This document shows positions 3 through 42,708 of a stretch of 42,708 nt of DNA, in pieces; the stretch's first letter is position 1; every line of letters begins with the position of its first letter. The stretch is taken from the sequence record QB031384.1. One strand, 5' to 3'. This DNA comes from a phage. The translations under genes were made by a program, and so were the position numbers. The notes beneath the pieces were generated by a model. It was not told where the DNA came from, ran no database searches, and saw only the letters and a list, made by a program, of their open reading frames with translations.

Positions 3-3000
3 TTACCCCTTATTATGTGCCAGCGATTTTACCTGCTCCTTTAGACGGGCAAGTTCTCTACGCTGGTACAGCATCTCAATGAAGAACATCTGATCAGGTC
101 GAATACCCCAACGACTACCTGCAGGAGTAACTACACTTACATTACCTTCCTCGTCATATTCCACCATCTCAGGGTACTCATCGTAGCACAGGAACCCGTA
201 CTTACATGAAGTAGCTTCAGGCTCCATAAGTCCGTTCGTAACGAGCACGTCACGTACCTGCTGTGCTATTACACCGAAGTGAGTACGAGCAGCATCCCCT
301 TTAGTAGCTAGACTGTCAAGCCACTTAAAGCTAATGATATGTACATCCTCCCAAGCATCTAACAGTGCCGATTCCACTTCCTCTGGAGCTGTTTTAAGAG
401 TACCGTCAGAAGTATTGATAGTGCCTGTAGCAGCGTACACCGTACTCCACCTATTAGATGCGCCTCCTAATGCTACAGAGGAGTCGTTATAAGGTAGCAG
501 GTTGTTTTGAGTGTAGACACCTCCCGTTGCGTACAGGACTGCCCTATTAGGCGTACTGTGATTAGATCCATAGAGTTGCACAATAGCGCCAGAGGCAGCG
601 GAGTTACCTGACCCTCCGCCCAGAATAAGCCGTTGCTGTGCTGGGTTATCAGTAGGCACTGACTTGTAAATCTGACCGTAATCCCCGTCCAGAAGTACTT
701 CAGACCGTACAGCAGGGATTCCGTTATGCCCAGTACCTGTAACACGCAAGGAGTTAACCTGTACGCTCTCATCAAAGACCATAGGCGCTGAAACATGACG
801 TAACCCATCTACCCCCATAGACACAGGTACAGTACGGTTAGGTGCTGCCCCGTATTTAAAGTCGCGAGACACATGCTGCTGCGGACCTACCTTAATACGG
901 TAGCTGTACAGGTCAGTAGGATGACCATCCTGCACGTACCAGCGCTTAGCAGAGTTACCTCCAATGGACCACGGGGATAAGAAATCCTCTCCGCCGAACA
1001 GATAGTACAGCCACCCATCCTTAACGCATACAGAACCTACCCCTACTGAGGAGTTAACTATGTTACCCTGATAAATCTGGTCGGTAACATTAAACCACTG
1101 CACCTCATCTAATGAGCTAGGCCAGTTACGGACGTTAACCTTGCACATAAAGGTGCGTGCGTAATTACCGTTGTAACGGTTATCAGGGGTATCCGCTTCC
1201 CACTCGTTTGCAGCCCGCTCACTCGAGAAGATATACAACTCGTCCCCCACCTTAGCAAAAGGTAGGTTACTGTTATGTACCTTGTTAGGGAAACGTAAGT
1301 ACTCCCAAGTCAAGCCTGAGTTAGTACTACGTGCCAAGGTAGAACCTGCGGAGGTGGCGGATGTTCCCCGAGTAGTAAGATACAACTCCCCGTCGTAATA
1401 GCGTATGCAAGGTTCGGAGGCATCGTTCGCGTACTCCTGAGACACTGTACGACGTTCAAATACTCCGGGATTGTTGTACACATCAGGGAAGTACAGGATA
1501 CCTAAACGTCTAGGAGAGACGTCACCGTTATGATAACCTACTGCAACTGCGTTACCTTCAAGGGCGGTAAAGCTATGGGTTTCAGTTACAGCTAAGTCAG
1601 CGTTAGTAGAGTATGCGATTCCCGGCAGTAAGGTCACTTCCCACTGGCAGTCCCAGAAACGTGTACCAAAGCTCCAAGTAACCCCGGCGTTGGTCAACGT
1701 TGAGGCAGCTGCGTTAGTTAAAGGTACTGTAATAGTATTAGCGTCAACTACGGTACGTACTACAGTATTACCTGAAACACCCGTAACCCCAGAGTTCGAG
1801 AAGTTAATAGTATCTCCTACCTTAAGCCCATGCATAGGAAGTACTACAGTAGCGAAGTTATCCCCAGCCACTGTGCTGATACCCCCAGTAGGCCTACGAG
1901 CATACGGCATTGGGCGCGACCACATCTCCGCCCGTACCATCCTAGCGTCAGATAGATTACGGGTCTCTACTAGCATGTACAAGCGGTTATTAGAAACACC
2001 CATGCTCATACAATGGTAGTTAACACCTGAGGCATAGTTAGGGTGGATAGGAGTAAGCCATTCTGGCATCGTCCACGTCTGACCATCGTCACCTGAACGT
2101 ACCCATGCTACATGCAGGTTCTGTACGCCATGCCGTTCACCTGCCATGAATGGTACGTATATTACATTATCATATACGAAAGACTTATCCTGAGTCCACG
2201 CATTGTAGAACGGGGTGTCTGTAATCTTAGTAAGACCTGCTTCGAAATAACCCTCCGATACATAAGTAAGAGGCTGACCCGCTAAGCGCTCATACTTAAA
2301 CGCGGCATTGCGGAAGCGGCTGAGGTCAGGTAAGGTAGTTACTTTAAAAGTTAAACCTTTACCGTCTATGTACTGATTATGGACCGCCGCTGCCAGCATG
2401 GCTTGAAGTGCTGCCGTATCATCCGTAACTGCATCACCTGCTACTCCCCATCCACGTACGTCAAAGGAATCTCTCCAATGAGGGCGGTAATACTCAGGAT
2501 TAACCTCAGGCCCGTCTATGCGAGTTAAGGCGTTACTCAGTGCAGCTAAACTCTCAGTAGTAGCATAACCTCCTTCCAGAACATCCTCACCTAGTCGCAT
2601 GAATACGTGAGTACCTGCGGGAACAGGGTCGGCTAGTATTACTGTATTGTCCCTAATGGTGTAACTGTACCCCGGAGTTTGACACACCCCGTTAATGTAC
2701 ACTGCTGCCTTTGTGAAGTTAAGGGCAATTCGGAACTCTTTAGTAGGTTCAGTAGTGTTGAAGTACATAGGGTAGCTGGAGGTAACACCGTTAAATGCAC
2801 CTTCGATGTTATCTACCCTGGTACTCACCTCATCCAGCTGTGACTTATTAACTGCATCCGTAGCGTCCTTACCTGCTGCCAGATTAATGATGCGGAAGCC
2901 GTTCATGTTGATAGTACCAAAGAAACCTTCGATACTGCGACCTTCTACCAGTTCCTGAGCTAAGTGCAGGAACTGGGTATTCTGAGTGTCTAAGTTCTCC

Positions 3001-3251
3001 TTAATAAAGGCAGCGCCTTCTGAGAACATGATGTAAAGAAACTCTTTAGCAGTGCGACGTACAATCAGTACAGTGCTCTCTGCATCGAGAGGCTTGTCAA
3101 AGCGGATGCGCGTATCACTGTCCCAAGTAAAATCAAATACCTCTTCACGGTTCACGTACAAGTAAATGTAGGAACGGTCGAGATAGTTGATCTCTACTGG
3201 GACAGTCTGTGCACCAGCTGGTAGAATTTGTTCTTGCCAGCTATAGGCCAT
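3..3251 (-). CDS. Tail fiber / tailspike: N-terminal T7 gp17-like adaptor, central Asp-box (BNR) beta-propeller glycosidase-like region, C-terminal intramolecular chaperone (peptidase S74-like)
   Basis: 1082-aa ORF. N-terminal region carries the tail-fiber motif FRIINLAAGKDATDAVNKSQLD. Central region has Asp-box-like motifs SGDDGQTWTM and STNSGLTWEY. C-terminus has TSDGTLK ... HFGVIAQQVRDVL, typical of autocleaving chaperone domains. Last gene of the structural module. Confidence 0.8.
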   Translation of the reverse strand: MAYSWQEQILPAGAQTVPVEINYLDRSYIYLYVNREEVFDFTWDSDTRIRFDKPLDAESTVLIVRRTAKEFLYIMFSEGAAFIKENLDTQNTQFLHLAQELVEGRSIEGFFGTINMNGFRIINLAAGKDATDAVNKSQLDEVSTRVDNIEGAFNGVTSSYPMYFNTTEPTKEFRIALNFTKAAVYINGVCQTPGYSYTIRDNTVILADPVPAGTHVFMRLGEDVLEGGYATTESLAALSNALTRIDGPEVNPEYYRPHWRDSFDVRGWGVAGDAVTDDTAALQAMLAAAVHNQYIDGKGLTFKVTTLPDLSRFRNAAFKYERLAGQPLTYVSEGYFEAGLTKITDTPFYNAWTQDKSFVYDNVIYVPFMAGERHGVQNLHVAWVRSGDDGQTWTMPEWLTPIHPNYASGVNYHCMSMGVSNNRLYMLVETRNLSDARMVRAEMWSRPMPYARRPTGGISTVAGDNFATVVLPMHGLKVGDTINFSNSGVTGVSGNTVVRTVVDANTITVPLTNAAASTLTNAGVTWSFGTRFWDCQWEVTLLPGIAYSTNADLAVTETHSFTALEGNAVAVGYHNGDVSPRRLGILYFPDVYNNPGVFERRTVSQEYANDASEPCIRYYDGELYLTTRGTSATSAGSTLARSTNSGLTWEYLRFPNKVHNSNLPFAKVGDELYIFSSERAANEWEADTPDNRYNGNYARTFMCKVNVRNWPSSLDEVQWFNVTDQIYQGNIVNSSVGVGSVCVKDGWLYYLFGGEDFLSPWSIGGNSAKRWYVQDGHPTDLYSYRIKVGPQQHVSRDFKYGAAPNRTVPVSMGVDGLRHVSAPMVFDESVQVNSLRVTGTGHNGIPAVRSEVLLDGDYGQIYKSVPTDNPAQQRLILGGGSGNSAASGAIVQLYGSNHSTPNRAVLYATGGVYTQNNLLPYNDSSVALGGASNRWSTVYAATGTINTSDGTLKTAPEEVESALLDAWEDVHIISFKWLDSLATKGDAARTHFGVIAQQVRDVLVTNGLMEPEATSCKYGFLCYDEYPEMVEYDEEGNVSVVTPAGSRWGIRPDQMFFIEMLYQRRELARLKEQVKSLAHNKG

Positions 3252-3253
3252 GT

Positions 3254-6200
3254 TTAATCTCCAAAGTTATTAATGATTGCACGGGTAGGCATGAACTCCT
3301 GCAAGAGCGGGAGACTACGGGACACGTCTTTAAGGTCTGCTTCTCCTGCTGCTACCTTCTGAATCAGTCCTAAGATGTTCATAGCATATCCAGTAGCGGT
3401 CAGGCTATGACGTGGGGACTGGTCGCTGAAGATATCAGTCACAAAGCTGAAGCCGCCTAGTATACTCATAGCTTTAACAGCTTCTGCGATAATCTTACCT
3501 TCTGATTCCTGCTTACCGTCAGCAGCGAAACGAGCTTGAGTAATAAGGTACATCAAAGGGAACTGATACGCAGCGAGATGGGCTAAGCCAATCCAGCCGT
3601 TATCACGGTATTCACGACGTAGAATCTTGTTAGTACCTGCTACAGCAAAGCTACCGTAACCAACTACTACGCGACCTACTGGACTGAACTGTGCAAAGTG
3701 AGAAGTCTCACCTACACGAATCTGCTGGATAACATGGTCCATTAGACGAGTACCAATAATCTCTAGCTGAAACTGTAAGTCATCTGGCAGTAAAGCATCA
3801 ACATCAGGACTAGCAGCAGCTTGCATACGCTTAGCAAGTTCAGGGTCAAGACCCCAACGCTGTAAACGCTTAGTAGCTTCTGCATCTCCGTTCAGCATGA
3901 GCTTAAGCTCATCCATTACGATACCTGCGTTAACGTTAGTCTGAAGACGATGCACCAGACCCATACCGTTTACGTGACGTGCAGCCTGACCGATGTTCTG
4001 AGTGATGTTAAACCAGCGGGAACTACGGGTAAGGTCTAAGTTATCATCAGCGTAAGAGTTCAACCAACGGAACCGAAGTTCCTTCTGAATGCTACCACGC
4101 AGGATAGAATCAAGACGAGCGGATTGACTAGCGTCTTTAGCGACAGCTGTAGCTTCCTTCCACCACTTTTCTTTCTTCATGCTGCGGAGTACTCGGGTCA
4201 TCCCGAACTCTTTCATAGCAAGCGCAGTATCTGCCAGCTGATACAAACCGGAGTTCTTAAGTACGGTGGCGTTGGCAAGGTTACCAGCAGCGCGGAATAT
4301 CTCCGGAACTTCTGAACCCTGAACAGGTGCGCCTACCATGAAGTCGATAGTATCATCTACATGCTTCTGATAACGGTCTGGGTCGCGTACTGTAGACTTA
4401 GCTGTGTTAATCATACCTTCCAGTGCATTCAAGTCAGTTACACCCGCGTATGCAAATGCTACACGACCTGATACACGGTTAGTATAACCTTGCATCTGCT
4501 TAGCTACGTCAGTATCCAGAATATCCGCCATACGCATAGCCTGGCCATTAACTATATACTCCTTCTGCAAGTCAAAGCGGTTACGAGTACGCAGGTTCTT
4601 AACCCGAGAAGTCTGAGTCGCTTCGCGTGCTACGTTAGTAGTAAGGAAGTTACGAATCTGGTCGTCTGCTACGCCTGCTGCACGCATTGCATCAACGATA
4701 ACTTCGTTGCCTACACCGCCCAGAATACTACGCCATGCCGGACCAGTCTGCTTAGACTTACCATCATAGATGCTTTCGAACATCTCACGAGCTACGCGAC
4801 CAGCAACCTCAGTTGTCATATCTGGGTAGATATCACGCAGGGCTTGACGGAACAGGTCGCGGTAGTCAGAAGCCTGACGCGCGCCAGTGTTAATCTGCTG
4901 ACGAATAGCATCGTAACTGTACGAGCGTGGGAAGTAGTAAGGACTACGCTTAATCTGAGAATCCACCTCAACCAGTCCAGACTTCTGGAGATGGTCATAC
5001 CATTTAGTAGCCCACTCAGAGTCTACATACGCCTTAACTAACGGGGCAATATCCTGAGGAGGGGTAGGAATCTCACGACCTGCTGTCTCCGCTGAGTATG
5101 CTTGGTCAAGGTATTGTGCAAGTTTAGACTCACGCTCACGACGAGCAGCTTTGAACTTGTTACGTTGCAAGAACGCATCCAGTAAACCAATACCATCTGC
5201 ACGCAGGGAATCAATAATGGCCTTCTCAACTACAGAGGCTGCACCATCAAGCTCTAACTGTAGGTTACGCTTATAGTCAGCTACAGAAGGACGACGTGCA
5301 CCTACTGCTGCGCCGTCAGCTACTAGCAGGTCTGCTAGGTCTTTAGAGCCTTCAGCAATGTTATCGTACAGGCTGAAGCTGCGAGCGAACGCCTTCTTAA
5401 AGCTATCTAACTGCTTAACTGCACCGTTAGCCGTATCGGCGAACTCACCATACTCAGATAATGCCTGAGACTTATAACGGGTAACACCACGCTCTTTAGC
5501 AGCTACATCCAGAAGCGCATCATAGGAATCAAGCACAGAGTTCAAGGCATTACCTTCTACCTTAGCACCTAATGCTTTAAGGATAGTTTGAGCAATACGA
5601 CGAATAGCACTAGCACCTTCTACTTCAGTATTACGCAGTAGCTTAACCAGACCTTTATCATCTGCAAGACCTGCAAGTAACTCTTCGTTACTGCTCAGGC
5701 TGTAGCGCATACGCGCATCAAGATTAGGACTAGTAAGAAGCTGCTCACGAATACGAGTAAGGTTAGTGGTAGCTTCCAATGCTTCTGGAGTACCAGACTG
5801 AATAGCGCGTACAGTAGCAGCATGTATAAGCTCATGCACAGCAATTTTAGCAGTATTAGAATCCAGGCCATTGATAGCATCTCCGTAGGTCTTCCAAGTA
5901 CGTGGGCCTTTCTTAGAGGCACGCAGGGTGACCGCATTGTTAACTAGGTTATAACGGCTAGAGATGTTAGTGTCACCTACGAGGTGTACAGGCACATCAT
6001 CTATGATACCGTCCAGTGAACGCAGCAATGCCTTCTGACCCTCATCCAGTACATCGCGTGCTAACAGGTTCTTAGTAACGTCACTTGCGCGTACACTTAC
6101 ACGAGCCTGCTGACCTTTCAGGATACGAATAGGTTTCTTAAGCGGGGTAGATTCTAAGGAATCAATCTTAGTAGTAAAGGCATCCGAGTCTGGAGCTGTA

Positions 6201-7024
6201 CGCTTAGTAGGAGCAGCTTCATCGAACTGCATTTCTGTACGAGTACTGCCACGAGTAGTACCAGTACTTGCATCTACAGCGTTACTAGCTGTGGTATCTG
6301 CTGCATCTTCCGTTGCACCTGCAACAGTACGCTGAACAGCACGGCTTGCATTAACTGCTTTGCGGATATCGAATAACTGGTCTACGCCTGATACTGCAGC
6401 TACTAATGCAGTGATACCTTCGGACTGTCCCAGCTGGTCCTGCGCATAGTACGCTGAACCTACGTCTGCTGCACGGATAGCTGAACGAACTGCTAAGCCT
6501 GCGCGACCTGCTACACCTGCGGCTGCAAACGGAGCTAACAGGGTAGGGGCGTCACCTAGAATAGAACCAGCGATACCAGACACGATGTTAGCGCTAGCAG
6601 TAGTATCACGCTCGCGCTGCTCCAGCATCTGTTCAATGCGGTAGTTATAATCATCCAAACTAACCGAAGTGCGTAAGTAATCAATTTCTTCCTGATTAGG
6701 GGTGTAAATTCTAGTCCGTGCATCTTTCTGGAGCATCTCCGTAGAGTTGAAGTCCAGGTCAGTTGGGAAGTCTGGAGAGAAAGCTTTGCGTAGACCTGCT
6801 GCGATAATACTGTTACCTGCACCAGCTATAAAGGACTGACCTGCAGTGATAGCAGCAGTACGAGCCTGGGCAGTATTAGATGCACGCTCAAGAGCGGAAG
6901 CACCTAAGTCTGTTGCATCACCCCAATTAACTGTAGCCTGAGGTTGTTGCACTTCAATGAGAGTATCTTGTTTAGCAGAATCCTTTATACCGGGACTAGC
7001 ATCTTGATTCAGGAACTGAGCCAT
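3254..7024 (-). CDS. Internal virion protein D-like (large ejection/core protein, T7 gp16 analogue)
   Basis: 1256-aa ORF between the gp15-like gene and the tail fiber. Size and position match T7/phiKMV synteny. No catalytic motif recognised by eye. Confidence 0.6.
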   Translation of the reverse strand: MAQFLNQDASPGIKDSAKQDTLIEVQQPQATVNWGDATDLGASALERASNTAQARTAAITAGQSFIAGAGNSIIAAGLRKAFSPDFPTDLDFNSTEMLQKDARTRIYTPNQEEIDYLRTSVSLDDYNYRIEQMLEQRERDTTASANIVSGIAGSILGDAPTLLAPFAAAGVAGRAGLAVRSAIRAADVGSAYYAQDQLGQSEGITALVAAVSGVDQLFDIRKAVNASRAVQRTVAGATEDAADTTASNAVDASTGTTRGSTRTEMQFDEAAPTKRTAPDSDAFTTKIDSLESTPLKKPIRILKGQQARVSVRASDVTKNLLARDVLDEGQKALLRSLDGIIDDVPVHLVGDTNISSRYNLVNNAVTLRASKKGPRTWKTYGDAINGLDSNTAKIAVHELIHAATVRAIQSGTPEALEATTNLTRIREQLLTSPNLDARMRYSLSSNEELLAGLADDKGLVKLLRNTEVEGASAIRRIAQTILKALGAKVEGNALNSVLDSYDALLDVAAKERGVTRYKSQALSEYGEFADTANGAVKQLDSFKKAFARSFSLYDNIAEGSKDLADLLVADGAAVGARRPSVADYKRNLQLELDGAASVVEKAIIDSLRADGIGLLDAFLQRNKFKAARRERESKLAQYLDQAYSAETAGREIPTPPQDIAPLVKAYVDSEWATKWYDHLQKSGLVEVDSQIKRSPYYFPRSYSYDAIRQQINTGARQASDYRDLFRQALRDIYPDMTTEVAGRVAREMFESIYDGKSKQTGPAWRSILGGVGNEVIVDAMRAAGVADDQIRNFLTTNVAREATQTSRVKNLRTRNRFDLQKEYIVNGQAMRMADILDTDVAKQMQGYTNRVSGRVAFAYAGVTDLNALEGMINTAKSTVRDPDRYQKHVDDTIDFMVGAPVQGSEVPEIFRAAGNLANATVLKNSGLYQLADTALAMKEFGMTRVLRSMKKEKWWKEATAVAKDASQSARLDSILRGSIQKELRFRWLNSYADDNLDLTRSSRWFNITQNIGQAARHVNGMGLVHRLQTNVNAGIVMDELKLMLNGDAEATKRLQRWGLDPELAKRMQAAASPDVDALLPDDLQFQLEIIGTRLMDHVIQQIRVGETSHFAQFSPVGRVVVGYGSFAVAGTNKILRREYRDNGWIGLAHLAAYQFPLMYLITQARFAADGKQESEGKIIAEAVKAMSILGGFSFVTDIFSDQSPRHSLTATGYAMNILGLIQKVAAGEADLKDVSRSLPLLQEFMPTRAIINNFGD

Positions 7025-32501: not shown

Positions 32502-32803
32502 GCATAATACTCAATGCAAGCAGCCTTAAACGCCTGCTTAGCGCCTTCATACCCCAGCTGCTGCAACTGCCTTACTATATCGAAATTGATGCGTCGCAGG
32601 ACCTCTGAGGCCCTTTCAGCATCATACTTATAATAACCTACCAACAACCGCATACCTTCCTTAGTATCGTAGTCCCTGCACCATTTTAAAGGGCAGAGCT
32701 TACGCAGTTCAATCGGTACGTCCTTTAACGTCTTAAGGCCTAAGCTGCTCTGGCTCTCGAGCATACGCCAGTACTGCTCTGTTACTTCTTCTACTGGTAA
32801 CAT
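32474..32803 (-). CDS. Hypothetical protein (109 aa)
   Basis: ORF starting about 10 nt after the stop of pentapeptide-repeat protein 2. No motif recognised. Confidence 0.5.
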   Translation of the reverse strand: MLPVEEVTEQYWRMLESQSSLGLKTLKDVPIELRKLCPLKWCRDYDTKEGMRLLVGYYKYDAERASEVLRRINFDIVRQLQQLGYEGAKQAFKAACIEYYAWQTSYRGI

Positions 32804-32813
32804 GCCTAGCTCC

Positions 32814-33350
32814 TTAGATACTAACCCAATCAGCGACGCGCAGGTCAGCGTCGCGCAGGTCAGTGCCGGTCAGGTCAGCGCCGCGCAGGTTAGCGCCGCG
32901 CAGGTTAGCGCCAATCAGGTTAGCGTCGCGCAGGTTAGCGCCGCTCAGGTCAGTGCCGCGCAGGTTAGCGCCGCGCAGGTTAGCGCCGTGCAGGTCAGCG
33001 CTGCGCAGGTCAGCGCCGCTCAGGTCAGCGCCGCTCAGGTCAGCGATGTTCAGGTCAGCGTAGCGCAGGTCAGCGCCGCGCAGGTCAGCGCCGCTCAGGT
33101 CAGCGCCGCGCAGGTTAGCGCCAATCAGGTTAGCGTCGCGCAGCTTAGCGTCGCTCAGGTCAGCGACGCGCAGGTCAGCGTCGCTCAGGTCAGCGTAGCG
33201 CAGGTCAGCGCCGCTCAGGTCAGCGCCGCGCAGGTCAGCGTCGAGCAGGTTAGCGCGGCGCAGGTCAGCGCCGCACAGGTCAGCGCCGCACAGGTCAGCG
33301 CCTTCCAAGGATTCTAACTTGTATTTATTACAGATATTGTCATAAGTCAT
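32814..33350 (-). CDS. Pentapeptide-repeat protein 2 (about 32 tandem pentapeptides; paralogue of 26019-26591)
   Basis: Unbroken A(D/N)L(R/S/C)G-type run that ends at the stop codon. Preferred start is the internal ATG at 33350 (GAGGT SD 8 nt upstream; cap MTYDNICNKYKL matches [12 protein letters not shown] of protein 1). The ORF track extends it to 33401. Confidence 0.8.
   Translation of the reverse strand: MTYDNICNKYKLESLEGADLCGADLCGADLRRANLLDADLRGADLSGADLRYADLSDADLRVADLSDAKLRDANLIGANLRGADLSGADLRGADLRYADLNIADLSGADLSGADLRSADLHGANLRGANLRGTDLSGANLRDANLIGANLRGANLRGADLTGTDLRDADLRVADWVSI
32827..33302. repeat. Tandem array of about 32 copies of the same 15-bp unit (CGCAGGTCAGCGNCG-like)
   Basis: Same 15-bp periodicity and unit sequence as the array at 26238-26549, on the same strand. 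Confidence 0.9.
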
Positions 33351-33360
33351 ATTAGTAACC

Positions 33361-33597
33361 TCAGTTAATTTTAATATTAAAACGTGCACAATACCCTTCA
33401 AGGGTCATCCCTACTTTAGCTGCTTTAAGACTGTAAGCTAACTTAAGAGCTTCCTTAGCGTCATGCTCACGAGCCAGCTTCTCAATCGTTACTTCATCAT
33501 TACGCATCAGAATCATTTCGGGGTTCCGGTTAATCATTTCTGCATCTCCAGTTTGAAAAGGGCCATTGCAGCGTTCCAGGCGAAACGCGGGTTGCAT
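33361..33597 (-). CDS. Hypothetical protein (78 aa)
   Basis: ORF-track ORF in the early/middle region. No motif recognised. Confidence 0.45.
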   Translation of the reverse strand: MQPAFRLERCNGPFQTGDAEMINRNPEMILMRNDEVTIEKLAREHDAKEALKLAYSLKAAKVGMTLEGYCARFNIKIN

Positions 33598-34531: not shown

Positions 34532-35197
34532 TTATTTTGAAATTCTTTCTGAAATATACACAAATCCCTTAGGAGTAAACTGCGCAGAGATGCGTGCAAC
34601 CTTTAATCTGTCAAAAGTAACCTTATGCTCCCCACGTTTAGCCTTTAGCCAGCCTGCACTGAATGTCCACGTACCATTCAATTTATACATATGCTTATTC
34701 TCTACCAGCCAACTTCTTACTTCAGCTTCAGTGTAAGATAAGAACTTACACATCTCACGGAAAGTCATAAGACCTGTAGTATCTACATAGTTACCTACGA
34801 ACTCAACCTTAGGCGCTGCTTCTTCTACCTTCTCTTGGAGCTTCAAGTTCTCTTCTGCGTAGTTCTGGAGAAGTCCCAGCAACTGCTTAGGGTCATGCAA
34901 GTTAATAGCAGGCTGACGTTGCTTACGCTCCAGCTCTTCCCAACGGTCAATGATACGGGCGCGCAGTTCTACATTGTAGCCAGAGATAATAAGTAATGTA
35001 TCACGTTTAGTTAAATGCCACTCGCGCTGTTGCTGATTATTATATCCGGCGTAAGTTACTGATTTACTTGATTGGCTCAAAACTGAGCCAATGCTTTCAA
35101 TGTCCCTAAGTACGTTCTTATGCAACTTACCAGTCAGCTCAGCAATCTCGCGGCTAGTCATGGTCTGTACATCAGTAGTAGTAGTTAAATCAAACAT
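34532..35197 (-). CDS. Rha-family regulatory protein with KilA-C/antirepressor-like C-terminal domain
   Basis: 221-aa ORF. N-terminal MTSREIAELTGKLHKNVLRDIESI matches the Rha signature as recalled. C-terminal half resembles antirepressor KilA-C domains. Confidence 0.55.
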   Translation of the reverse strand: MFDLTTTTDVQTMTSREIAELTGKLHKNVLRDIESIGSVLSQSSKSVTYAGYNNQQQREWHLTKRDTLLIISGYNVELRARIIDRWEELERKQRQPAINLHDPKQLLGLLQNYAEENLKLQEKVEEAAPKVEFVGNYVDTTGLMTFREMCKFLSYTEAEVRSWLVENKHMYKLNGTWTFSAGWLKAKRGEHKVTFDRLKVARISAQFTPKGFVYISERISK

Positions 35198-36909: not shown

Positions 36910-37093
36910 CCTATACCTCTGCATGTAGTAAAAACTCGCACTATATATATAACAGTACTTAGTTCATTGACTCACCTGATTGTTAAAGAACTACCTATAC
37001 TACCTATAATATCACAGCGCTAACCCTGCATCAAGCATTGCACAGCCTGGGAGCAAAAGAGGTAAGCCCGGAGGCATAGCAGCGGCATGCAGC

Positions 37094-37187
37094 AGAGATA
37101 CAGTAGAGATACAGTACTGAACAAGGTGCTGAACAAAATAGGCAAAAGCATCTCAGAGCATCTCCCTGTGCTCGACAAAATAGGCAA
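37094..37187. repeat. Cluster of short direct repeats in the non-coding putative terminal region
   Basis: agagatacagt is tandemly duplicated (37094-37115); ctgaacaa occurs twice; acaaaataggcaa occurs twice 42 bp apart; agcatctc occurs twice. Confidence 0.5.
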
Positions 37188-37354
37188 GACTAACCTCTCC
37201 CGCACCCTCAACAGAGAGCGCAGAGACAGCCAGCCAAGCCAGGTCCTGCCAGAGATACGCAGAGGCACCCCCTACCCTCCCTCCAGAAGATTCCCAGAGG
37301 CCGCCCCTACGGGGGGAACAGCGCGTTGGTCGGGTGAGGGAGGGCCTCGTGTGA

Positions 37355-37391
37355 GTATAATAAATTCAAGGTGCTTGTTTACACGAGCACC
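37355..37391 (-). terminator. Putative rho-independent terminator after the last gene (tailspike)
   Basis: On the minus strand: stem GGUGCU/AGCACC (37370-37375 paired with 37386-37391), 10-nt loop, then UUGAAUUUAUUAU. Stem is short and the U-tract is interrupted. Confidence 0.4.
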
Positions 37392-37416
37392 CTGATGCTT
37401 CTCAGGTACATCCCCT

Positions 37417-39162
37417 TTAGTTATTGCGTCCTGTAAGAAGTACTGCATGATCATACGTGTGCTGCACCCCATCCAGCTGCATGCACAGACCTATTAACTG
37501 ACCGTTACTGCTGCCGGAATAACTAGCAGGAGCATCAAACTGACCTGAGATACCGCGTCTATCCAGGGCATCTGCACGAGCAACCCAACTGTAGTTACCT
37601 GGAGCAGCACTACGCTGTACGCCCGACCCAGCGGGTAAAGTAAAGCTAAGCTGTTTAGGGAAGCTACAGCGTAAGTTCAGAGGAGGTGCACCGCCATCTT
37701 CGAAGAACAATGCATTCCCTGAGCTGGTAGCCCAGTTAGAAGGGAATACTTCTACAGTACAGTCGCTGAAGCTCGTGCCAGGACGAAAGTACATGAAGCT
37801 GTAAAGTTCTGAGCTAGGGTGGCGCATCCTGATACTGATGTTGCAGCGGGTCATGCTTGAGATACGTTGTGTTTCAAACAAGTTCAGTCCGGTACGAGTA
37901 CCAGTATTAGTATCGCCGATGATGTTACTTGCATCCCAATTGAAGCGTTCTACCTGAACAGTACGGGGAGACGGTAACTCCGAGACCATAGCTTGTTTAA
38001 CATCGAAGAAGTTATCCTGGAACACTATGCCCTGAATACTACCGTTCATAGTAATGGCTGCGCTCAGGCTACGGCTGCGGTCTACAATGAAGCTACAACC
38101 ACGTACAGTAACATCATTAATGAGATACTGGCTTGAGTCGGAGTTAGAGTCCTGAAAGAAGTCTACGAAGCTGCACATACCCGGGTGGTTACCTGAAGTG
38201 AACCGACAATTCTCTACAGTAAAGCCGTTAATATGCGTAGTAGCTACTGCATCTGGACCTGCTGCAAAGATAACAACCTGACCTGATACGTCCCCAGTTA
38301 CCCCGGACATAACAGAGTTGTAAAGGTACGTACCAGCACCCTCTGACTCTGCGCCGTGCAGTGCTACATAGCAGCCGCGGGTATATCCTGAAATGAAAGA
38401 ATCGCGATAGTACGTATTATGCTGGTGCAGTTCTACAGTAGCAGCAATTACACGTGCACGGGCAGAATTAGCCCGGAATGTACAGCCTGTGACACCACTA
38501 AATGGTGCGTTTACATATACAGTACTGTGGTCACGGTTTACATCGCTCTGAATCAGGTTAAGGAACCGGCAGTTACGTACATGCGTATCTGAGCCGTACC
38601 CGTTCCAGCCAATAGTAACGCCCCATGTAACGTCCCCGTTCTGGAAGGTAATGCCATCTACGCTACAGTTATACCCGCGTCCGAATGCGATACCATTGCG
38701 GAGATGCCCGGCGTTAGCGAAGTCGTAACCGCCAAAGTCAATAGTACCCTCGCCATAAATATGGCAGTTATCAAGGTTGCCCGAGTTAGCTGGGTTACCA
38801 TCAGTAAAGCCTACGAAGACTTGGAAGGAACTATTAGCTAAAGCAGGGCCTACTTTAATAGTACCGTCCAGTTTAATACTTACATTGCTTTTAAGCTGGA
38901 TAAGACCGCTATGCCCTGAAACTGGGCCAGTGCTAATGCTGTTCAGCGTCCATGTACCTTCCGGGATAACTAGTAAACCGCCACCTACTGACTCTATGTA
39001 ATCAATAGCTGCCTGCATACCTTCTCGGGCATCAGCTACGTCGGGAGTAATCCACTGGCGCAGGTTATACCCATTATCATTGAGGTAGGTGCTAAGCTGT
39101 AAACCTGAATGGTCTACATGCAGCGTATCCAGTTCGACTTCAACTAACTTTACTAAGGTCAT
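37417..39162 (-). CDS. Tailspike / polysaccharide depolymerase with right-handed beta-helix (pectate-lyase-like), no N-terminal particle-anchor domain
   Basis: 581-aa ORF with N-terminal REGMQAAIDYIESVGGGLLVIPEGTWTLNS, then Gly/Asn/Thr-rich repeats typical of parallel beta-helices. No gp17-like adaptor region. Last gene before the putative genome end. Confidence 0.7.
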   Translation of the reverse strand: MTLVKLVEVELDTLHVDHSGLQLSTYLNDNGYNLRQWITPDVADAREGMQAAIDYIESVGGGLLVIPEGTWTLNSISTGPVSGHSGLIQLKSNVSIKLDGTIKVGPALANSSFQVFVGFTDGNPANSGNLDNCHIYGEGTIDFGGYDFANAGHLRNGIAFGRGYNCSVDGITFQNGDVTWGVTIGWNGYGSDTHVRNCRFLNLIQSDVNRDHSTVYVNAPFSGVTGCTFRANSARARVIAATVELHQHNTYYRDSFISGYTRGCYVALHGAESEGAGTYLYNSVMSGVTGDVSGQVVIFAAGPDAVATTHINGFTVENCRFTSGNHPGMCSFVDFFQDSNSDSSQYLINDVTVRGCSFIVDRSRSLSAAITMNGSIQGIVFQDNFFDVKQAMVSELPSPRTVQVERFNWDASNIIGDTNTGTRTGLNLFETQRISSMTRCNISIRMRHPSSELYSFMYFRPGTSFSDCTVEVFPSNWATSSGNALFFEDGGAPPLNLRCSFPKQLSFTLPAGSGVQRSAAPGNYSWVARADALDRRGISGQFDAPASYSGSSNGQLIGLCMQLDGVQHTYDHAVLLTGRNN

Positions 39163-39171
39163 ACCTGTTCC

Positions 39172-39735
39172 TTATTTAGGCATAGCAGCTACTGCTGCTT
39201 GCATAGATTTAAATTCGTTGCCAATAGCTTTGGCTTCCCACTTACGGCGCTCCCAGAGCCCGTAGCAGACCTTATTAGGTTTACCCTTTACCAACATACT
39301 ACAGTCGTACTTAACCCCGTTACGGGTGATATAGCGCCAGCTAAGTACAGCCTTAGCTGCACCTTTAGTATCGCCTTGCATTAGCTTTCGCTTCGCGGTA
39401 CTGTTCTTGAAACCTGAGATACCGGTGTTATAGGTCATGTCCAAAGCACCAAGAATCTGTACGTCCGTAAGGGACATAGGAAGCCCGTCAAGAGCCTTAG
39501 CATGCTCCCCAGCTGATTGTATCAGTTGTTGCTTACACTGCGTCAGAGTGGCTGTATCGCCCATCCTAACGCCCTTAGTCTCACCATAGCAGATAGTAGG
39601 TACTCCGGCGGAGTCCTTGTATGCCTTAAGGGAGAGACCTTCGTTATGCTGTATCACCATAGCGATACTGGCGCCCAGCAGGGAAGTCCCTGCCAGCGCC
39701 GCCTTAACCTTGTTGCTTATGCTCATAGTATTCAA
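39172..39735 (-). CDS. Endolysin, lysozyme family (GH24-like) with N-terminal signal or signal-anchor-release segment
   Basis: 187-aa ORF with catalytic-region pattern EGLSLKAYKDSAGVPTICYGET (E ... D ... T) preceded by the weakly hydrophobic N-terminus KVKAALAGTSLLGASIAMVI. Confidence 0.8.
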   Translation of the reverse strand: MNTMSISNKVKAALAGTSLLGASIAMVIQHNEGLSLKAYKDSAGVPTICYGETKGVRMGDTATLTQCKQQLIQSAGEHAKALDGLPMSLTDVQILGALDMTYNTGISGFKNSTAKRKLMQGDTKGAAKAVLSWRYITRNGVKYDCSMLVKGKPNKVCYGLWERRKWEAKAIGNEFKSMQAAVAAMPK

Positions 39736-39952
39736 GGCCCTTCTCTAAGGCTCGCTCCTTGAGCTTGTACTCTTTGTGCCTGTAGTATGCGTTCCATGCA
39801 AAGGTCAGTACAGCTACAACCGTACCGACTATGAAGGAGATTGTCCCCCAGTTCCAAGACATTATGTTTGCCATCCAACCGCCGCCCATAGTAGCGACTG
39901 ACACATTCGTTCCTACACGGGTGATAGTTTCCCCGTTAATTGGTAGACTCAT
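39704..39952 (-). CDS. Putative holin (82 aa from SD-supported internal ATG; the ORF track extends it to 40027)
   Basis: Hydrophobic helix WGTISFIVGTVVAVLTFAW followed by a charged C-terminus, immediately upstream of the endolysin. The ATG at 39952 has AAGGA 9 nt upstream. Confidence 0.4.
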   Translation of the reverse strand: MSLPINGETITRVGTNVSVATMGGGWMANIMSWNWGTISFIVGTVVAVLTFAWNAYYRHKEYKLKERALEKGLEYYEHKQQG

Positions 39953-40361
39953 CGCTTTCGTCCTTAGTTCTTCCGAGTTTGCGGAACAACAGGACAATGA
40001 TGAGGATTGCGATTGGAACCGCTGCACCTGCCAGTCCTGCTAGAATTATGCTAGTACCGTCATTGTTAACAACCTGTACTCGCTCCGTGTTAATGGTTCC
40101 AGTAGTAACTGAACTGGACTGCTTCTTGGTAGAAGTATCCAGCGTGCCTACGTTAGAATCTTTAATTGATGTTTCATTGTCCGTGCTGGAGTCGGACTTG
40201 CCATTAAGGCCTACAGTTTGTTTCGTATTCTCTGCGCCAGCTTGCACGGACAGGTCTGGCTTAGAGCCAATAAGACCTGTCAATGCAGAGGTCGCTGAGC
40301 AGCCTACCAAACACCCTGTAAGAGCCGTAGCGAGGACTAACCCAGCGACCTTAGCCCGCAT
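39936..40361 (-). CDS. Lipoprotein with C-terminal transmembrane helix (unimolecular-spanin-like)
   Basis: 141-aa ORF. N-terminal signal with lipobox LTGC, a Ser/Thr-rich middle, then C-terminal TMD IILAGLAGAAVPIAILIIVLLF and a charged tail. Confidence 0.5.
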   Translation of the reverse strand: MRAKVAGLVLATALTGCLVGCSATSALTGLIGSKPDLSVQAGAENTKQTVGLNGKSDSSTDNETSIKDSNVGTLDTSTKKQSSSVTTGTINTERVQVVNNDGTSIILAGLAGAAVPIAILIIVLLFRKLGRTKDESDESTN

Positions 40362-40569: not shown

Positions 40570-42393
40570 TTAATATTTGATGCGTGCGCTCGCACCACGC
40601 TTGCGCTTGTGCACCATTGACTTCTTCCAGCCCATAGGGTTATCCATAAAGTCTAACGCCTTCTTAAGCTGGTCCTTCTCTGCTGCCTGCTTCTCATCCT
40701 CTACGAGGTGCGAGTTCAGTTCAGCTACGAGCATACTAATAGCGTCTGCCCGGTCATCCTTCGCTAGGCTACCACGGTCATAAGTAATACCAGATAACTG
40801 CTGGAACGCACTGTAAAGCCAGCGCTTATCACGACTGTACTGCATACAGTATTTGATATCGTCTTCCAGCGCCCTAGCGTGCACTACAAAGCGGTGACGA
40901 CGCGTAACAGGGGAGATAGTATCAATGATACGTTTCTCCTTCTGGGACGTGTTATAACCGCCCCTGACACCAATGCCGGGCATACTACGCTCACGCAGAC
41001 GGTTTATAATCAAAGATTCTACCGTGCCGTGACCCATGTTACGCTCGACAAAGATGTCAGTAATACCCATCTCGACCGCTAGGTCAATCAAGGTATCTAC
41101 GTTCTCTGTGCTAAGCCCACCCTGCAACCCGCCTACAGTAAAGAGGTGGATGTAAGAGCTAACTGCACCACCGGCTGCAAAGGATACTTCATCACCACCG
41201 TTACCAGCAGGGTCAAGTACCAGCAGCTTGTGCTTGTAGTTGAGCATATGCTCCCCTATGTGGCTCGGCACATACAGTTGCTGACCTCGAATACCTTCGT
41301 GTTCCTCTCCGTAGAGATAGCGCTTATCAGCCATGTAGTTCAGTCGGTCAGGTGCTGCATCATGCGAGCCAGTGTAAATCAAAGCGTCACTGAGTTTAAT
41401 CTTGGTACGTAGTGCATCGGACATGGTTGTGTCGAGCATATACTGTAATTGGAACCCTTCTGGGCCGAAGTCCAGTTCCTTCTCAATCAAGGCTTCCTCG
41501 TTATAACGTCCTTTATCGGTGCATTCACCTAACGTACCATCCAACCCAAAGCCTGTTTCTTTATACCCTGCGTCGATGAGGGTTTGAATATACGGGGCAA
41601 GGGTTTCTCCGTAACGCTCGCGCATCTCCTGATTAGGAATACGTCCAGGCCATACACGTACCTCGAAGCCACGACCCGGCAGTGTCTTGTAGATACTCTC
41701 CTTAGTCTGAGGAGTACCGAGGTACAGGGTATCACCGTGCGTACAGATAGCTGCAAAGTCTTTAGAGATGTTCAGTAACTGCTCACGCATTGTCTGCGTC
41801 AGGCCGTTCTTGGTTGTTTCAATATCGTCAGGAATCAGGAGGTCAGCACGTTTACCCTGAAGCTGCGCGGTAATACCAACACAAGCAATAGAGGCTGACT
41901 TATCCAGAGGTTTCAAATCGCAGTTAATGTCGTACCCTTCATAAGAGGTACGGTCACCACGGGTAGGGTCTGCTTTCAGGTAACAGAGCAGAGGCCACGT
42001 CTCAATCATACGAATGACAAGCGTAGCTACTTCGGATGCCTGCTTCTCACCGCCAGAGACGATAAGAATACGTGTACGCTGGTCTTGAATAAGCCGCCAT
42101 ACAGCGTACAGGGCAGCCAACGTGGATTTTGCTTCGCCTCGTTGTGCAGCTACCATGCGCTTACGCGGACCGTGCTGCATGAAGTCAGCAATATCACGCT
42201 GCATCTCCGTCAGGTCAAAGCCTAGGAACTTCATACCTAAGTATGCAAACTCCCGGAAGTCCTTCAGGGTAACAGCCATCATCAGTGCTACTTCCTCGCG
42301 CTGGTCCTTAGGGATAGTGCGGGGACTGTCATTCATTACTGTAGTGCGTTGAGATATTAGTTTCAATCGGTTCAGTGTAGTAGGACTAATCAC
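40570..42393 (-). CDS. Terminase large subunit (T7 gp19-like)
   Basis: 607-aa ORF (T7 gp19 is about 586 aa) with ATPase-like N-terminal half and nuclease-like C-terminal half, directly after the small-subunit gene. Confidence 0.85.
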   Translation of the reverse strand: MISPTTLNRLKLISQRTTVMNDSPRTIPKDQREEVALMMAVTLKDFREFAYLGMKFLGFDLTEMQRDIADFMQHGPRKRMVAAQRGEAKSTLAALYAVWRLIQDQRTRILIVSGGEKQASEVATLVIRMIETWPLLCYLKADPTRGDRTSYEGYDINCDLKPLDKSASIACVGITAQLQGKRADLLIPDDIETTKNGLTQTMREQLLNISKDFAAICTHGDTLYLGTPQTKESIYKTLPGRGFEVRVWPGRIPNQEMRERYGETLAPYIQTLIDAGYKETGFGLDGTLGECTDKGRYNEEALIEKELDFGPEGFQLQYMLDTTMSDALRTKIKLSDALIYTGSHDAAPDRLNYMADKRYLYGEEHEGIRGQQLYVPSHIGEHMLNYKHKLLVLDPAGNGGDEVSFAAGGAVSSYIHLFTVGGLQGGLSTENVDTLIDLAVEMGITDIFVERNMGHGTVESLIINRLRERSMPGIGVRGGYNTSQKEKRIIDTISPVTRRHRFVVHARALEDDIKYCMQYSRDKRWLYSAFQQLSGITYDRGSLAKDDRADAISMLVAELNSHLVEDEKQAAEKDQLKKALDFMDNPMGWKKSMVHKRKRGASARIKY

Positions 42394-42408: not shown

Positions 42409-42708
42409 TTATAAGATTCCAGCTAATGGGTCATCAGGGTCTGCACCAGCTTTCGCCAGTAGCCCCTGCGCCCGTGCCTTACGTTTCTCTGCTAACTCAT
42501 CTTGGAACTCATCACGTAGCTCCTGCATCTCCGTAGAGTCTGCATCTGCTGTAACGTCGTTGTCCTTAAGGAATTTAGCGATTACTGATTTGTCAGCAGC
42601 AGGCATAGGAAGCTCTTCATCCTGAGCCTGCTTTAATTCTGAGATGAGTACCTCGGTGAACATCTTGTGAAGTTCAGCGAGGCGACTCTTTGTAGCCGCC
42701 TTAGCCAT
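42409..42708 (-). CDS. Terminase small subunit-like protein (T7 gp18 analogue)
   Basis: 99-aa acidic, helical ORF immediately upstream of the large subunit. Its ATG is the last 3 nt of the window, so its SD would lie across the window junction. Confidence 0.55.
   Translation of the reverse strand: MAKAATKSRLAELHKMFTEVLISELKQAQDEELPMPAADKSVIAKFLKDNDVTADADSTEMQELRDEFQDELAEKRKARAQGLLAKAGADPDDPLAGIL

Follow-up and report, generated by a model that had tools for sequence, protein, structure and literature searches.

A predicted O18-type tailspike in the second receptor-binding protein slot of a KP34-like phage that encodes a K1 endosialidase

Results

Genomic setting of RBP2

The window, by which we mean the whole 42,708-nt stretch of DNA analysed here, contains the entire genome, circularly permuted, of a podovirus of the KP34-like group (Slopekvirinae), and its nearest genomes are those of Escherichia phages P64441 and PAS7. 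The ORF under study, which we call RBP2, occupies 37417..39162 on the minus strand, running from an ATG at 39162 to a stop codon at 37417-37419, and encodes 581 residues. An earlier sequence-only reading of this locus had given no strand for it. From the ORF, Pfam, a PDB match, an AlphaFold2 (AF2) model and Foldseek, the protein is predicted to comprise a docking peptide, an HK620-type β-helix O-antigen endoglycosidase and a C-terminal domain.

The genes that precede RBP2 were ordered by Pfam as terS, terL, a spanin-like gene, holin and endolysin. The last three make up the lysis cassette (39172..40361, minus strand), which lies directly upstream of RBP2 and was assigned from the Pfam Phage_lysozyme and holin families and the P64441 annotation (spanin-like gene 39936-40361, holin 39704-40027, endolysin 39172-39735). 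The endolysin stop and the RBP2 start are separated by a gap of 9 nt, and the RBP2 ATG is preceded by a GGA-rich, Shine-Dalgarno-like stretch. No terminator-like site was seen between the two genes, and RBP2 is probably co-transcribed with the lysis cassette.

On its other side, RBP2, the last late gene, is followed by ~490 nt of non-coding DNA (36925..37416, minus strand) before the first early gene. This region holds terminator-like and promoter-like sites as well as the downstream recombination flank (37009-37384) described below, and the physical genome end probably falls within it. In the linear record of KP34, gp57, the RBP2 equivalent, stops 123 nt short of the right terminal repeat, and the place of this repeat is the equivalent of 36925..37416. 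The RBP2 equivalent is likewise the last gene of the PAS7 record, and many IMG/VR contigs stop just past it. We also considered whether the conserved GC-rich stretch past the RBP2 stop forms a structured RNA or a strong terminator and rejected this, the fold z-score of only -1.69 being not significant.

The sequence-only reading had placed the gene behind the lysis cassette, at the end of the genome and apart from the structural module. Both placements hold: RBP2 follows the endolysin, its equivalents in KP34, PAS7 and the IMG/VR contigs lie near record ends, and between it and the primary fibre gene (3..3251) lie six genes, ~3.25 kb when counted over the circular junction. The position is no oddity. 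It is the canonical RBP2 slot of the Slopekvirinae, which is taken by gp57 in KP34 and by the tailspike in PAS7.

Fold and catalytic residues of RBP2

In a phmmer search against the PDB, RBP2 residues 43-566 matched the HK620 tailspike (E 3e-129). The AF2 monomer model (mean pLDDT 86.6) is an HK620-like β-helix that Foldseek aligned with 6g0x/2vji at TM 0.90 and an rmsd of 2.1 Å; the structure prediction proposed as a check by the sequence-only reading thus bears out its β-helix. The HK620-type body spans residues ~31-581, with the β-helix starting at about residue 31. Pfam matched Phage_spike_2 and HK620_9_C, the latter being the C-terminal domain that contributes to the HK620 trimer and matching at E 0.002, below the gathering score.

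Alignment places the putative catalytic pair at Asp211 (38530..38532, minus strand; context NRDHSTVYV) and Glu244 (38431..38433, minus strand; context TVELHQH), which correspond to HK620 D339 and E372, residues with a reported catalytic role (PMC8217332). Both columns are nearly invariant across 32 homologs. Phe336 (38155..38157, minus strand), at a glucose-pocket position, occupies the only column with Gly in HK620 and Phe in EP75 TSP1, and the loop around it is almost the same as in EP75 TSP1 and K1ind3.

The pectate-lyase-like motif noticed earlier from the sequence corresponds to the N-terminal β-helix cap (DAREGMQAAIDYIESVGGG...), but the enzymatic class that its name implies did not stand. 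No Pfam pectate-lyase family matched RBP2 at E up to 0.1, and the catalytic residues are those of a hydrolase. The nearest solved structures in Foldseek were glycoside hydrolases, with lyases appearing only as remote β-helix matches (TM 0.3-0.4). RBP2 is most likely an O-antigen hydrolase, and neither a lyase nor a capsule enzyme, because it combines the HK620 fold, the Asp/Glu pair, identity to the K1ind3 and EP75 tailspikes and homologs in O18 prophage carriers.

A sialidase activity for RBP2, as suggested by the '63D sialidase' label on its best database matches, was also considered and rejected. No endosialidase Pfam domains were found in RBP2, and the K1ind record ascribes the 63D likeness to the N-terminus only. 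The label on K1ind- and EP75-type records stems from the anchor region and not from the body that they have in common with RBP2. The genuine 63D enzyme (AB015437), a canonical endosialidase, finds its match in RBP1, the primary fibre of the phage, and not in RBP2.

A docking heptapeptide at the N-terminus of RBP2

RBP2 begins with MTLVKLV (codons 1-7; 39142..39162, minus strand), which matches the KP34-group docking heptapeptide M-[A/S/T]-L-x-x-L-[V/I]. The group motif has been defined as MALxxLV (PMC6872550), and the N-terminus of KP34 gp57 reads MALTKLV. Compared with MALxxLV, the RBP2 peptide shows a single departure, the conservative A2T, and position 2 was A, S or T in 26 of the 30 distinct heptapeptides surveyed. 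Residues 1-28 (39079..39162, minus strand), which are disordered in the monomer model (pLDDT <50), would form the docking arm.

The motif was established by a positional survey of the slot, because the peptide is too short for tblastn, in which the first 45 RBP2 residues gave no meaningful match in the phage collection. Among related IMG/VR contigs, 65 of 80 had an ORF start 13-21 nt past the endolysin match, and 56 of the 64 distinct ORFs in the RBP2 slot matched M[AST]Lxx[LIVN][VI], across 28 unrelated bodies. With the first 62 residues as query, phmmer returned from the PDB a chance match only (E 0.9) and no structure with a docked homologous peptide; the crystal entry of KP34 gp57, 8BKE, contains the depolymerase alone. 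In phage KP32, deletion of the conserved peptide, there the longer KP32-type of 29 aa, abolishes RBP2-dependent infection (PMC13352976).

The gp17 anchor PF03906 had no match in RBP2 at E up to 0.1, in agreement with the earlier observation that the protein has no gp17-like adaptor. The term anchor-less, which had been drawn from this, is right for the gp17 anchor and goes too far otherwise: judged from its N-terminus, RBP2 is not truly anchor-less and has a docking heptapeptide in place of the gp17 anchor.

RBP1 as endosialidase fibre and branching platform

The primary fibre RBP1 (3..3251, minus strand; 1082 aa) comprises a gp17-type anchor, a stalk, a branching domain, a K1 endosialidase and an S74 chaperone. 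Its Pfam matches were End_beta_propel (E 8e-197), End_tail_spike, End_N_terminal, Phage_T7_tail and Peptidase_S74, and it is 98.4% identical to the 'endo-N-acetylneuraminidase' of P64441. Residues 1-150 (2802..3251, minus strand) correspond to a T7 gp17-like tail anchor and coiled stalk (PF03906, YadA_stalk), and this N-terminus gave profile matches to the N-terminal cryo-EM chains of HRP29 gp44, PhiM1 gp47 and T7 gp17. The endosialidase catalytic region for K1 polysialic acid, assigned by Pfam to residues 271-947 (411..2441, minus strand), is 64-65% identical to the endosialidases of K1G, K1H, 63D and phi92. The genuine endosialidase of the phage is, as predicted from these domains, RBP1.

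Between the stalk and the catalytic region, residues 158-224 (2580..2780, minus strand) form a compact β domain that, from alignment and model, is probably a T4gp10/XD-like branching domain and the docking site of RBP2. The region at residues ~158-224 aligns with the segment of KP34 gp49 in which the T4gp10-like fragment lies, and it is modelled with a pLDDT of 90-96. Foldseek matched this domain to the N-terminal XD domains of CBA120 TSP4 and to B2 Gp48/49 (rmsd 1.4-2.9 Å). A profile match to residues 188-269 of a K64-1 depolymerase was also obtained for the branching region.

Exchange of the RBP2 gene between conserved flanks

DNA homology to P64441 (95%) breaks off at 39152, 11 nt into the RBP2 ORF, and restarts at 37384; homology to PAS7 past RBP2 covers 37394-37292. 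The RBP2 gene was probably acquired as a cassette by recombination between two conserved flanks, one formed by the endolysin 3' end together with the first four RBP2 codons and the other by the non-coding DNA past the stop codon. In the window, an HK620-type body stands in place of the P64441 RBP2 cassette.

A fixed pairing of the endosialidase with the O18-type spike was rejected, as each partner is also found with a different one. IMG/VR locus L008 carries the same RBP2 (83% amino acid identity) with a different RBP1, and P64441 carries the same RBP1 with a different RBP2. In a further IMG/VR locus, L046, the endolysin is just 56% identical and RBP2 is different.

Predicted substrate of RBP2

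The RBP2 body is 77.6% identical to the K1ind3 tailspike, the host of K1ind being O18:K1:H7, and 72.4% identical to EP75 TSP1. It has been reported that EP75 TSP1 produces haloes on E. coli O18A and that pre-treatment of cells with TSP1 blocks EP75 adsorption, and a Gly-to-Phe switch at the glucose pocket was proposed to exclude the branched O18A1 (PMC8217332). In RBP2, both F336 and the loop around it are EP75-like. Compared with HK620, RBP2 has Phe336 in place of Gly and a 4-residue deletion in the glucose-pocket loop, and this difference suggests O18A rather than O18A1.

Prophage homologs of the RBP2 body were found in 14 of 5,426 complete E. coli genomes. The O18 wzx/wzy genes were present in at least 9 of the 14 carriers, and in 9 of the 10 whose homolog covered at least 31% of the query. 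Against a background of 69 O18 genomes among the 5,426, the enrichment has a hypergeometric P of ~1e-14, a value computed over E. coli genomes that are phylogenetically non-independent. One well-covered carrier, 20AR0354, was without O18 confirmation.

RBP2 is most likely an endo-N-acetylglucosaminidase that binds and cleaves the serogroup O18 O-antigen, most likely of the unbranched O18A type, as predicted from its relatives. At 72-78% identity to O18 tailspikes that are characterised or linked to O18 by their host, RBP2 need not share their O18 subtype; HK620 (O18A1) and EP75 TSP1 (O18A) differ in fine specificity.

Discussion

Attachment and specificity of RBP2

We propose that the ORF is the RBP2 of an E. 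coli podovirus that is KP34-like (Slopekvirinae) and related to Cepavirus, that it docks on RBP1 and acts as an O18 hydrolase, and that it was acquired as a cassette; we put the probability of this reading at roughly 0.8. A second receptor-binding protein, attached through the primary fibre as in other podoviruses, is what the sequence-only reading had proposed here, and the HK620-type body, the docking motif, the conserved slot and the branching-type domain of RBP1 lend this computational support. In this model, whose components were predicted as monomers only, RBP2 trimers would dock via their N-terminal peptide on the branching domain of each RBP1 trimer, so that each of the six tail positions would carry two enzymes. 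RBP1 would then cleave the K1 polysialic-acid capsule and RBP2 the O18 O-antigen. Since the primary fibre is a predicted K1 endosialidase, the two enzymatic specificities envisaged earlier are most likely K1 capsule and O-antigen.

The route by which the protein might act has two other versions. If instead it is a soluble depolymerase that is co-expressed with the lysis genes and leaves the cell when lysis occurs, RBP2 would be non-structural and would strip neighbouring cells or prevent the trapping of progeny. Its gene right behind the endolysin with no terminator-like site between, its missing gp17 anchor, and the haloes that undiluted lysates still gave with unincorporated RBP2 in KP32 engineering (PMC13352976) are consistent with this. 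We consider it very unlikely, as the heptapeptide, kept on 28 unrelated bodies in the slot, would serve no evident purpose in an unattached enzyme, and RBP1 keeps the partner branching domain. In addition, the PAS7 protein in the same slot is the published primary determinant of O103 specificity (PMC11522302), and related tails carry such spikes on the particle: the fibre trimer of PhiM1, whose tail is nearest that of HRP29, 'adapts trimers of spike protein' (PMC11440229), and gp44/gp52 of HRP29 are treated as one tail protein complex (PMC11654681). Less probable still is a virion tailspike bound directly to the tail, at the adaptor or nozzle, or replacing RBP1 at some of the six positions. 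The motif, at 7 residues, is very short, and the account of the KP34-type interaction that was consulted (PMC6872550) gives a model rather than a solved structure. Against direct attachment, RBP2 has neither the PF03906 anchor nor another tail-binding domain, the branching-type domain of RBP1 is retained and well folded and has no known role other than the docking of further RBPs, and the RBP2 of KP32 is not incorporated once the branching domain of RBP1 has been removed (PMC13352976).

The remaining alternative concerns the substrate, and we regard it as unlikely, though more probable than the two above. RBP2 could be an HK620-type virion tailspike whose substrate is not O18 but a different O-antigen, or else a capsule or exopolysaccharide built on a related backbone. 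EP75 TSP1, the sole biochemically tested close relative, is only 72% identical, identity falls to 52-55% at residues ~481-520, and few substitutions can shift tailspike specificity, the difference between O18A and O18A1 having been put to one Gly/Phe switch (PMC8217332). Nonetheless, every characterised or host-linked member of the family leads to O18 (HK620 to O18A1, EP75 TSP1 to O18A, and K1ind, isolated on O18:K1:H7), the O18 enrichment of the prophage homologs is strong, and RBP2 keeps both the catalytic pair and the pocket loop. These observations favour O18 as the substrate.

Implications of the enzyme pair

With a K1 endosialidase and an O18-type hydrolase paired, the predicted host range would centre on O18:K1 ExPEC/NMEC. 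That both enzymes are matched to one pathogen clone, the O18:K1 E. coli of extraintestinal infection and neonatal meningitis, is a tentative suggestion to which we give somewhat less than even odds. If it is true, the endosialidase fibre would first clear away the K1 capsule, after which the mounted O18 tailspike would digest the O-antigen layer beneath. Alternatively, the O18 tailspike would allow infection of capsule-loss mutants, which are normally out of reach of K1 phages, and the phage would then be a naturally 'escape-proofed' K1 phage made by one cassette swap in a KP34-type scaffold. The pairing may also offer a ready template for engineered K1 phages that still infect capsule-loss mutants.

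In the searched literature we found no phage described as combining an endosialidase with an HK620-type spike, and we found no other phage record with this RBP2 in a KP34-type scaffold in the searched phage collection. The locus would represent natural plug-and-play host-range evolution, with a scaffold close to that of P64441 in which only the secondary tailspike was swapped, and the incoming RBP2 body is one that is also in circulation among siphoviruses (K1ind), myoviruses (EP75) and P22-like prophages.

Comparison with known systems

HK620 gp9 (PDB 2VJI), an O18A1-specific endo-N-acetylglucosaminidase, shares with RBP2 the fold of the β-helix and C-terminal domain and the catalytic Asp/Glu pair at 42-43% identity over ~520 residues. 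The two differ at the N-terminus, where HK620 gp9 has a P22-type head-binding domain and RBP2 a short docking peptide only. The closest bodies are those of EP75 TSP1 (Kuttervirus) and the K1ind1-3 tailspikes (Kagunavirus), at 72% and 78%, and their attachment regions, TSP1/Gp66-type tandem domains in the myovirus and a 63D/K1G-type siphovirus anchor in K1ind, are entirely unlike the N-terminus of RBP2.

The nearest scaffolds belong to two members of Cepavirus (Slopekvirinae). With the 12-kb structural-module query, vB_EcoP_P64441 showed 99% nucleotide identity over about half of the query, and vB_EcoP_PAS7 showed 83%. The proteins in their RBP2 slots begin with MTLVANI and MSLVSLV, respectively, which are related to MTLVKLV, while their bodies are unrelated to that of RBP2 (23-24% identity in global alignment).

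Phages K1-5, K1E and SP6 also have two enzymatic tailspikes per tail position, encoded at the genome end and attached by short N-terminal peptides of 7 or 11 residues, and a K1 endosialidase can be among these enzymes. There, both spikes sit on a separate adaptor, gp37, and neither has an anchor, whereas the endosialidase fibre described here would itself be the anchor and branching platform.

The dual-RBP system of the 'group B KP34virus' (Latka et al. 2019) is the same in slot and architecture. KP34 gp57 is encoded by the last gene, directly behind the endolysin, and its MALTKLV is a heptapeptide of the same type as MTLVKLV; the group B RBP1, like the RBP1 described here, has a gp17 anchor and a T4gp10-like branching fragment as well as an enzyme of its own. 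The differences lie in the host, which is Klebsiella for KP34 and E. coli here, and in the enzymes, as RBP1 here carries a K1 endosialidase, and KP34 gp57 is a capsule depolymerase unrelated in sequence to RBP2, a predicted O-antigen hydrolase. The architecture is that of the published KP34 'group B' anchor-branch model, which is standard for this phage group and the understanding of which is unchanged; what is new here is a further example of a known arrangement and not a new kind of system.

Position of the RBP2 gene and genome layout

The RBP2 gene has its ATG at 39162 and extends to 37417; like every long ORF of the window, it is on the minus strand, and it encodes a secondary tailspike of 581 aa. 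In the reading order of this strand, the small terminase gene (terS, 42409-42708) comes first and is followed by the large terminase gene (40570-42393), a 60-aa ORF, a 141-aa spanin-like ORF, the holin gene and the endolysin gene (39172-39735), which directly precedes RBP2. RBP2 starts 9 nt past the endolysin stop, with a GGA-rich ribosome-binding-like sequence before the start, and no terminator-like site was found between the two genes. On its 3' side, ~490 nt without a convincing ORF lead to the early genes, which include a Rha/KilAC antirepressor-like protein and a pentapeptide-repeat protein. Read on the minus strand, the junction of the two window ends is clean: the TAA stop (3-5) of the primary tail fiber RBP1 comes first, then 2 nt, then the terS ATG (42706-42708). 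The window is therefore the whole phage genome in circularly permuted form.

The closest matches among phage records are Escherichia phages vB_EcoP_P64441 (nt identity of 95% across the lysis genes, and of 99% in roughly half of a 12-kb structural-module query) and vB_EcoP_PAS7 (75-83% nt identity). Both are assigned to the Slopekvirinae, the KP34-like subfamily, and PAS7 serves as reference for a proposed genus, Cepavirus (PMC11522302). P64441, PAS7 and KP34 carry, in the same slot right after the endolysin, a 480-630-aa gene named 'tail fiber', 'tailspike' or 'tail protein', and in the linear KP34 record the RBP2 counterpart gp57 ends 123 nt short of the right terminal repeat. Consequently, the sequence-only reading was accurate in placing RBP2 behind the lysis cassette and at the genome end, and this slot is the normal place of the RBP2 gene in the KP34-like subfamily.

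PAS7 also has an extra collagen-repeat/CBM5_12 gene annotated 'putative tail fiber' between holin and endolysin (L002:5079-6179 in the PAS7 locus), which is without counterpart in the window or P64441; its product may be a third fiber-like component of PAS7. Among the early genes, the antirepressor-like ORF of Rha (PF09669) and KilAC/ANT (PF03374) domains (34532..35197, minus) sits in a phage that by its other features would be taken for a strictly lytic T7-supergroup podovirus. A 195-aa ORF (32814..33401, minus) consists nearly entirely of pentapeptide repeats of the ADLxG/ANLRG type, and its P64441 equivalent is annotated as a pentapeptide repeat-containing protein, for which a DNA-mimic or anti-defense role is possible. 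The periodicity of these repeats also gives rise to an antisense ORF of QVSAA repeats (32802..33317, plus).

Fold and catalytic residues of RBP2

RBP2 matched the Pfam family Phage_spike_2 (E 1.4e-10) and, below threshold, HK620_9_C, while the same search returned no pectate-lyase family and no T7 tail-fiber anchor. Against solved structures, residues 43-566 matched the HK620 tailspike (E 3e-129). The AlphaFold2 model built with 32 homologs (mean pLDDT 86.6) has an unbroken β-helix that begins near residue 31 and continues to the C-terminus, and it superimposes on HK620 tailspike structures with a TM score of 0.90 and an rmsd of 2.1 Å, while lyases and other β-helix enzymes gave only remote matches. 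HK620 gp9 is an endo-N-acetylglucosaminidase that cuts the O18A1 O-antigen via D339 and E372 (Barbirz et al. 2008, as cited in PMC8217332). D211 and E244 of RBP2 align with these two residues in conserved contexts, and both columns are near-invariant in the family, the exceptions being engineered PDB mutants. The fold match and the conserved residues thus indicate that RBP2 is an HK620-type glycoside hydrolase and not a lyase; the β-helix enzyme proposed earlier is borne out, but its pectate-lyase-like character is not.

The probable partner fiber RBP1

RBP1 (3..3251, minus, 1082 aa) begins with a T7 gp17 N-terminal domain and a coiled stalk, continues with endosialidase domains and ends in an S74 intramolecular chaperone. 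All four endosialidase domains are present (End_beta_propel E 8e-197), and the protein is 98.4% identical to the 'endo-N-acetylneuraminidase' of P64441 and 64-65% identical to the endosialidases of K1G, K1H, 63D and phi92. Its first ~230 residues share 47% identity with gp49, the short adaptor fiber of KP34, and the aligned portion includes the region of gp49 with the T4gp10-like fragment. In the model of residues 1-280, a compact β domain at ~158-222 (pLDDT 90-96) resembles XD branching domains, those of CBA120 TSP4 and of B2 phage Gp48/49 (rmsd 1.4-2.9 Å), and a profile of the module matches cryo-EM chains from related tails, namely 23sh 'tail fiber gp9', HRP29 gp44 and PhiM1 gp47. In PhiM1, whose tail is most like that of HRP29, the trimeric fiber 'adapts trimers of spike protein' (PMC11440229), and HRP29 gp44/gp52 is treated as a single tail protein complex (PMC11654681). 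RBP1 thus joins a complete K1-type endosialidase to a gp17 anchor and an XD-like branching domain, which makes the window phage a K1-capsule phage within the KP34-like subfamily.

The putative docking peptide of RBP2

The N-terminus of RBP2 reads MTLVKLV. In KP34-group phages, the second RBP has a universally conserved N-terminal heptapeptide, MALxxLV, which has been modeled as docking on the T4gp10-like fragment of the first RBP (Latka et al., PMC6872550). The counterparts begin with MALTKLV (KP34 gp57), MSLVSLV (PAS7) and MTLVANI (P64441), and MTLVKLV and MALVKLV open two metagenomic proteins whose HK620-type bodies have diverged. We surveyed 80 IMG/VR loci with relatives of the window endolysin and found an ORF of 460-690 aa beginning 13-21 nt past the endolysin match in 65 of them. 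The pattern M[AST]Lxx[LIVN][VI] fits 56 of the 64 distinct ORFs, even though their bodies fall into 28 unrelated clusters. Residues 1-28 are the sole low-confidence segment of the RBP2 model, as expected if the peptide becomes ordered only on its partner. In KP32, RBP2-dependent infection is lost when the conserved peptide is deleted (PMC13352976); the peptide removed there is a different, longer one (29 aa), and no equivalent deletion of the KP34-type heptapeptide was found in the literature examined. RBP2 was described earlier as anchor-less, which holds for a gp17-like anchor, but the protein probably carries a short docking peptide instead.

Probable substrate of RBP2

The RBP2 body shares 77.6% identity with the K1ind3 (siphovirus) tailspike, 72.4% with EP75 (myovirus) TSP1 and 41.9% with HK620 gp9. 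The host in the K1ind3 record is E. coli O18:K1:H7. The same record confines the likeness to 63D to the N-terminus and describes the C-terminus as similar to the HK620 tailspike; therefore, we dismissed the name 'sialidase' on this match as misleading. EP75 TSP1 forms haloes on E. coli O18A, and prior exposure of the cells to it stops EP75 adsorption, while it is without activity on O18A1, O18B and O18B1 (PMC8217332). In a single alignment column HK620 has Gly and EP75 has Phe; RBP2 (F336) and K1ind3 both have Phe, and the loop around F336 is nearly identical to that of EP75.

In an independent test, prophage homologs of the RBP2 body were sought in 5,426 complete E. coli genomes and found in 14. 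The O18 marker, wzx/wzy from UTI89, is present in 69 of the 5,426 genomes, and in at least nine of the 14 carriers (9 of the 10 with ≥31% query coverage); the hypergeometric P of ~1e-14 is illustrative only because the genomes are non-independent. P22-like prophage tailspikes resembling the RBP2 body (E. coli genomes H88-H97) occur almost only with O18 wzx/wzy, and many of these genomes are from poultry. Strain 20AR0354 is a well-matching carrier with no O18 confirmation among the matches listed.

Taken together, the K1ind3 and EP75 TSP1 identities, the F336 loop and the prophage enrichment suggest that the substrate is very probably the serogroup O18 O-antigen, most likely in its unbranched O18A form. 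The enzyme was previously assigned to polysaccharide depolymerization, which stands, but the O-antigen is a likelier target than the capsule.

Proposed mechanism

We propose that RBP2 trimers dock via their N-terminal peptides onto the branching domain of each RBP1 trimer, which would give a virion with two enzymes. The RBP1 endosialidase, judging from its family, would degrade the K1 polysialic-acid capsule, and the HK620-type spike would bind and hydrolyze the O18 O-antigen. The two may act in sequence on O18:K1 cells, or they may broaden the host range so that it includes O18 strains lacking a capsule and K1 strains with other O-types. The predicted endosialidase and HK620-type body support the idea of a second receptor-binding protein with a second enzymatic specificity, and the heptapeptide, together with the anchor and branching domain of RBP1, favors attachment through the primary fiber.

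Among the alternatives, an RBP2 substrate other than O18 is the least improbable, yet it is unlikely given the enrichment and the EP75-like loop. RBP2 has no gp17-like anchor and could act as a soluble enzyme outside the virion, but the heptapeptide makes this very improbable compared with a docked virion tailspike. Direct attachment of RBP2 to the tail is more improbable still, as RBP2 has no anchor and the branching domain points to docking on RBP1.

Probable exchange of the RBP2 body

DNA homology to P64441 continues through the endolysin, stops at 39152, 11 nt inside the RBP2 ORF, and restarts at 37384, 33 nt past the RBP2 stop; PAS7 has the segment 37394-37292 in common with the window. 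The break and restart indicate that the whole RBP2 body is a cassette swapped between conserved flanks. The GC-rich non-coding stretch at 37292..37394, close behind the RBP2 stop, is 84-86% conserved in P64441 and PAS7, whose RBP2 bodies are unrelated. It probably acts as the flank for recombination on the downstream side, and a terminator or the genome terminus may lie within it; its predicted RNA fold showed no significant stability (z -1.69).

The HK620-type body family is also joined to P22-type head-binding domains in E. coli prophages, TSP1/Gp66-type N-termini, a siphovirus anchor and full T7 gp17 anchors. Four proteins of 808-904 aa from ~40-kb contigs (P0016, P0017, P0030 and P0035) combine the body with a full T7 gp17 anchor and a TSP1/Gp66-type domain. 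Fusions to full gp17 anchors suggest that the HK620-type enzyme acts as a primary, anchored RBP in other podoviruses. The pairing with the endosialidase is not fixed, since the metagenomic viral contig L008 (IMGVR_UViG_3300045988_002189, ORF 5059-6804) has an RBP2 of 581 aa with 83% full-length identity to that of the window, while the C-terminus of its RBP1 has only the S74 chaperone region (30%) in common with window RBP1, and P64441 has the window-type RBP1 with a different RBP2.

Comparison with known systems

In the literature searched, we found no description of a Slopekvirinae phage with an endosialidase and no paper pairing an endosialidase with an HK620-type spike, and the phage collection searched contained no record with the window RBP2 in this scaffold; an 83%-identical version is present in the metagenomic contig L008. 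For phages directed at O18:K1 E. coli, the combination has moderate practical interest. The architecture fits the 'group B KP34virus' model from the literature, in which an enzymatic RBP1 with anchor and branch is joined by an enzymatic RBP2 bearing the heptapeptide. None of the single elements is new, be it the HK620-type O18 tailspike family, the KP34 anchor-branch system and heptapeptide, the place in the genome or the cassette exchange; the novelty lies in how they are combined here.
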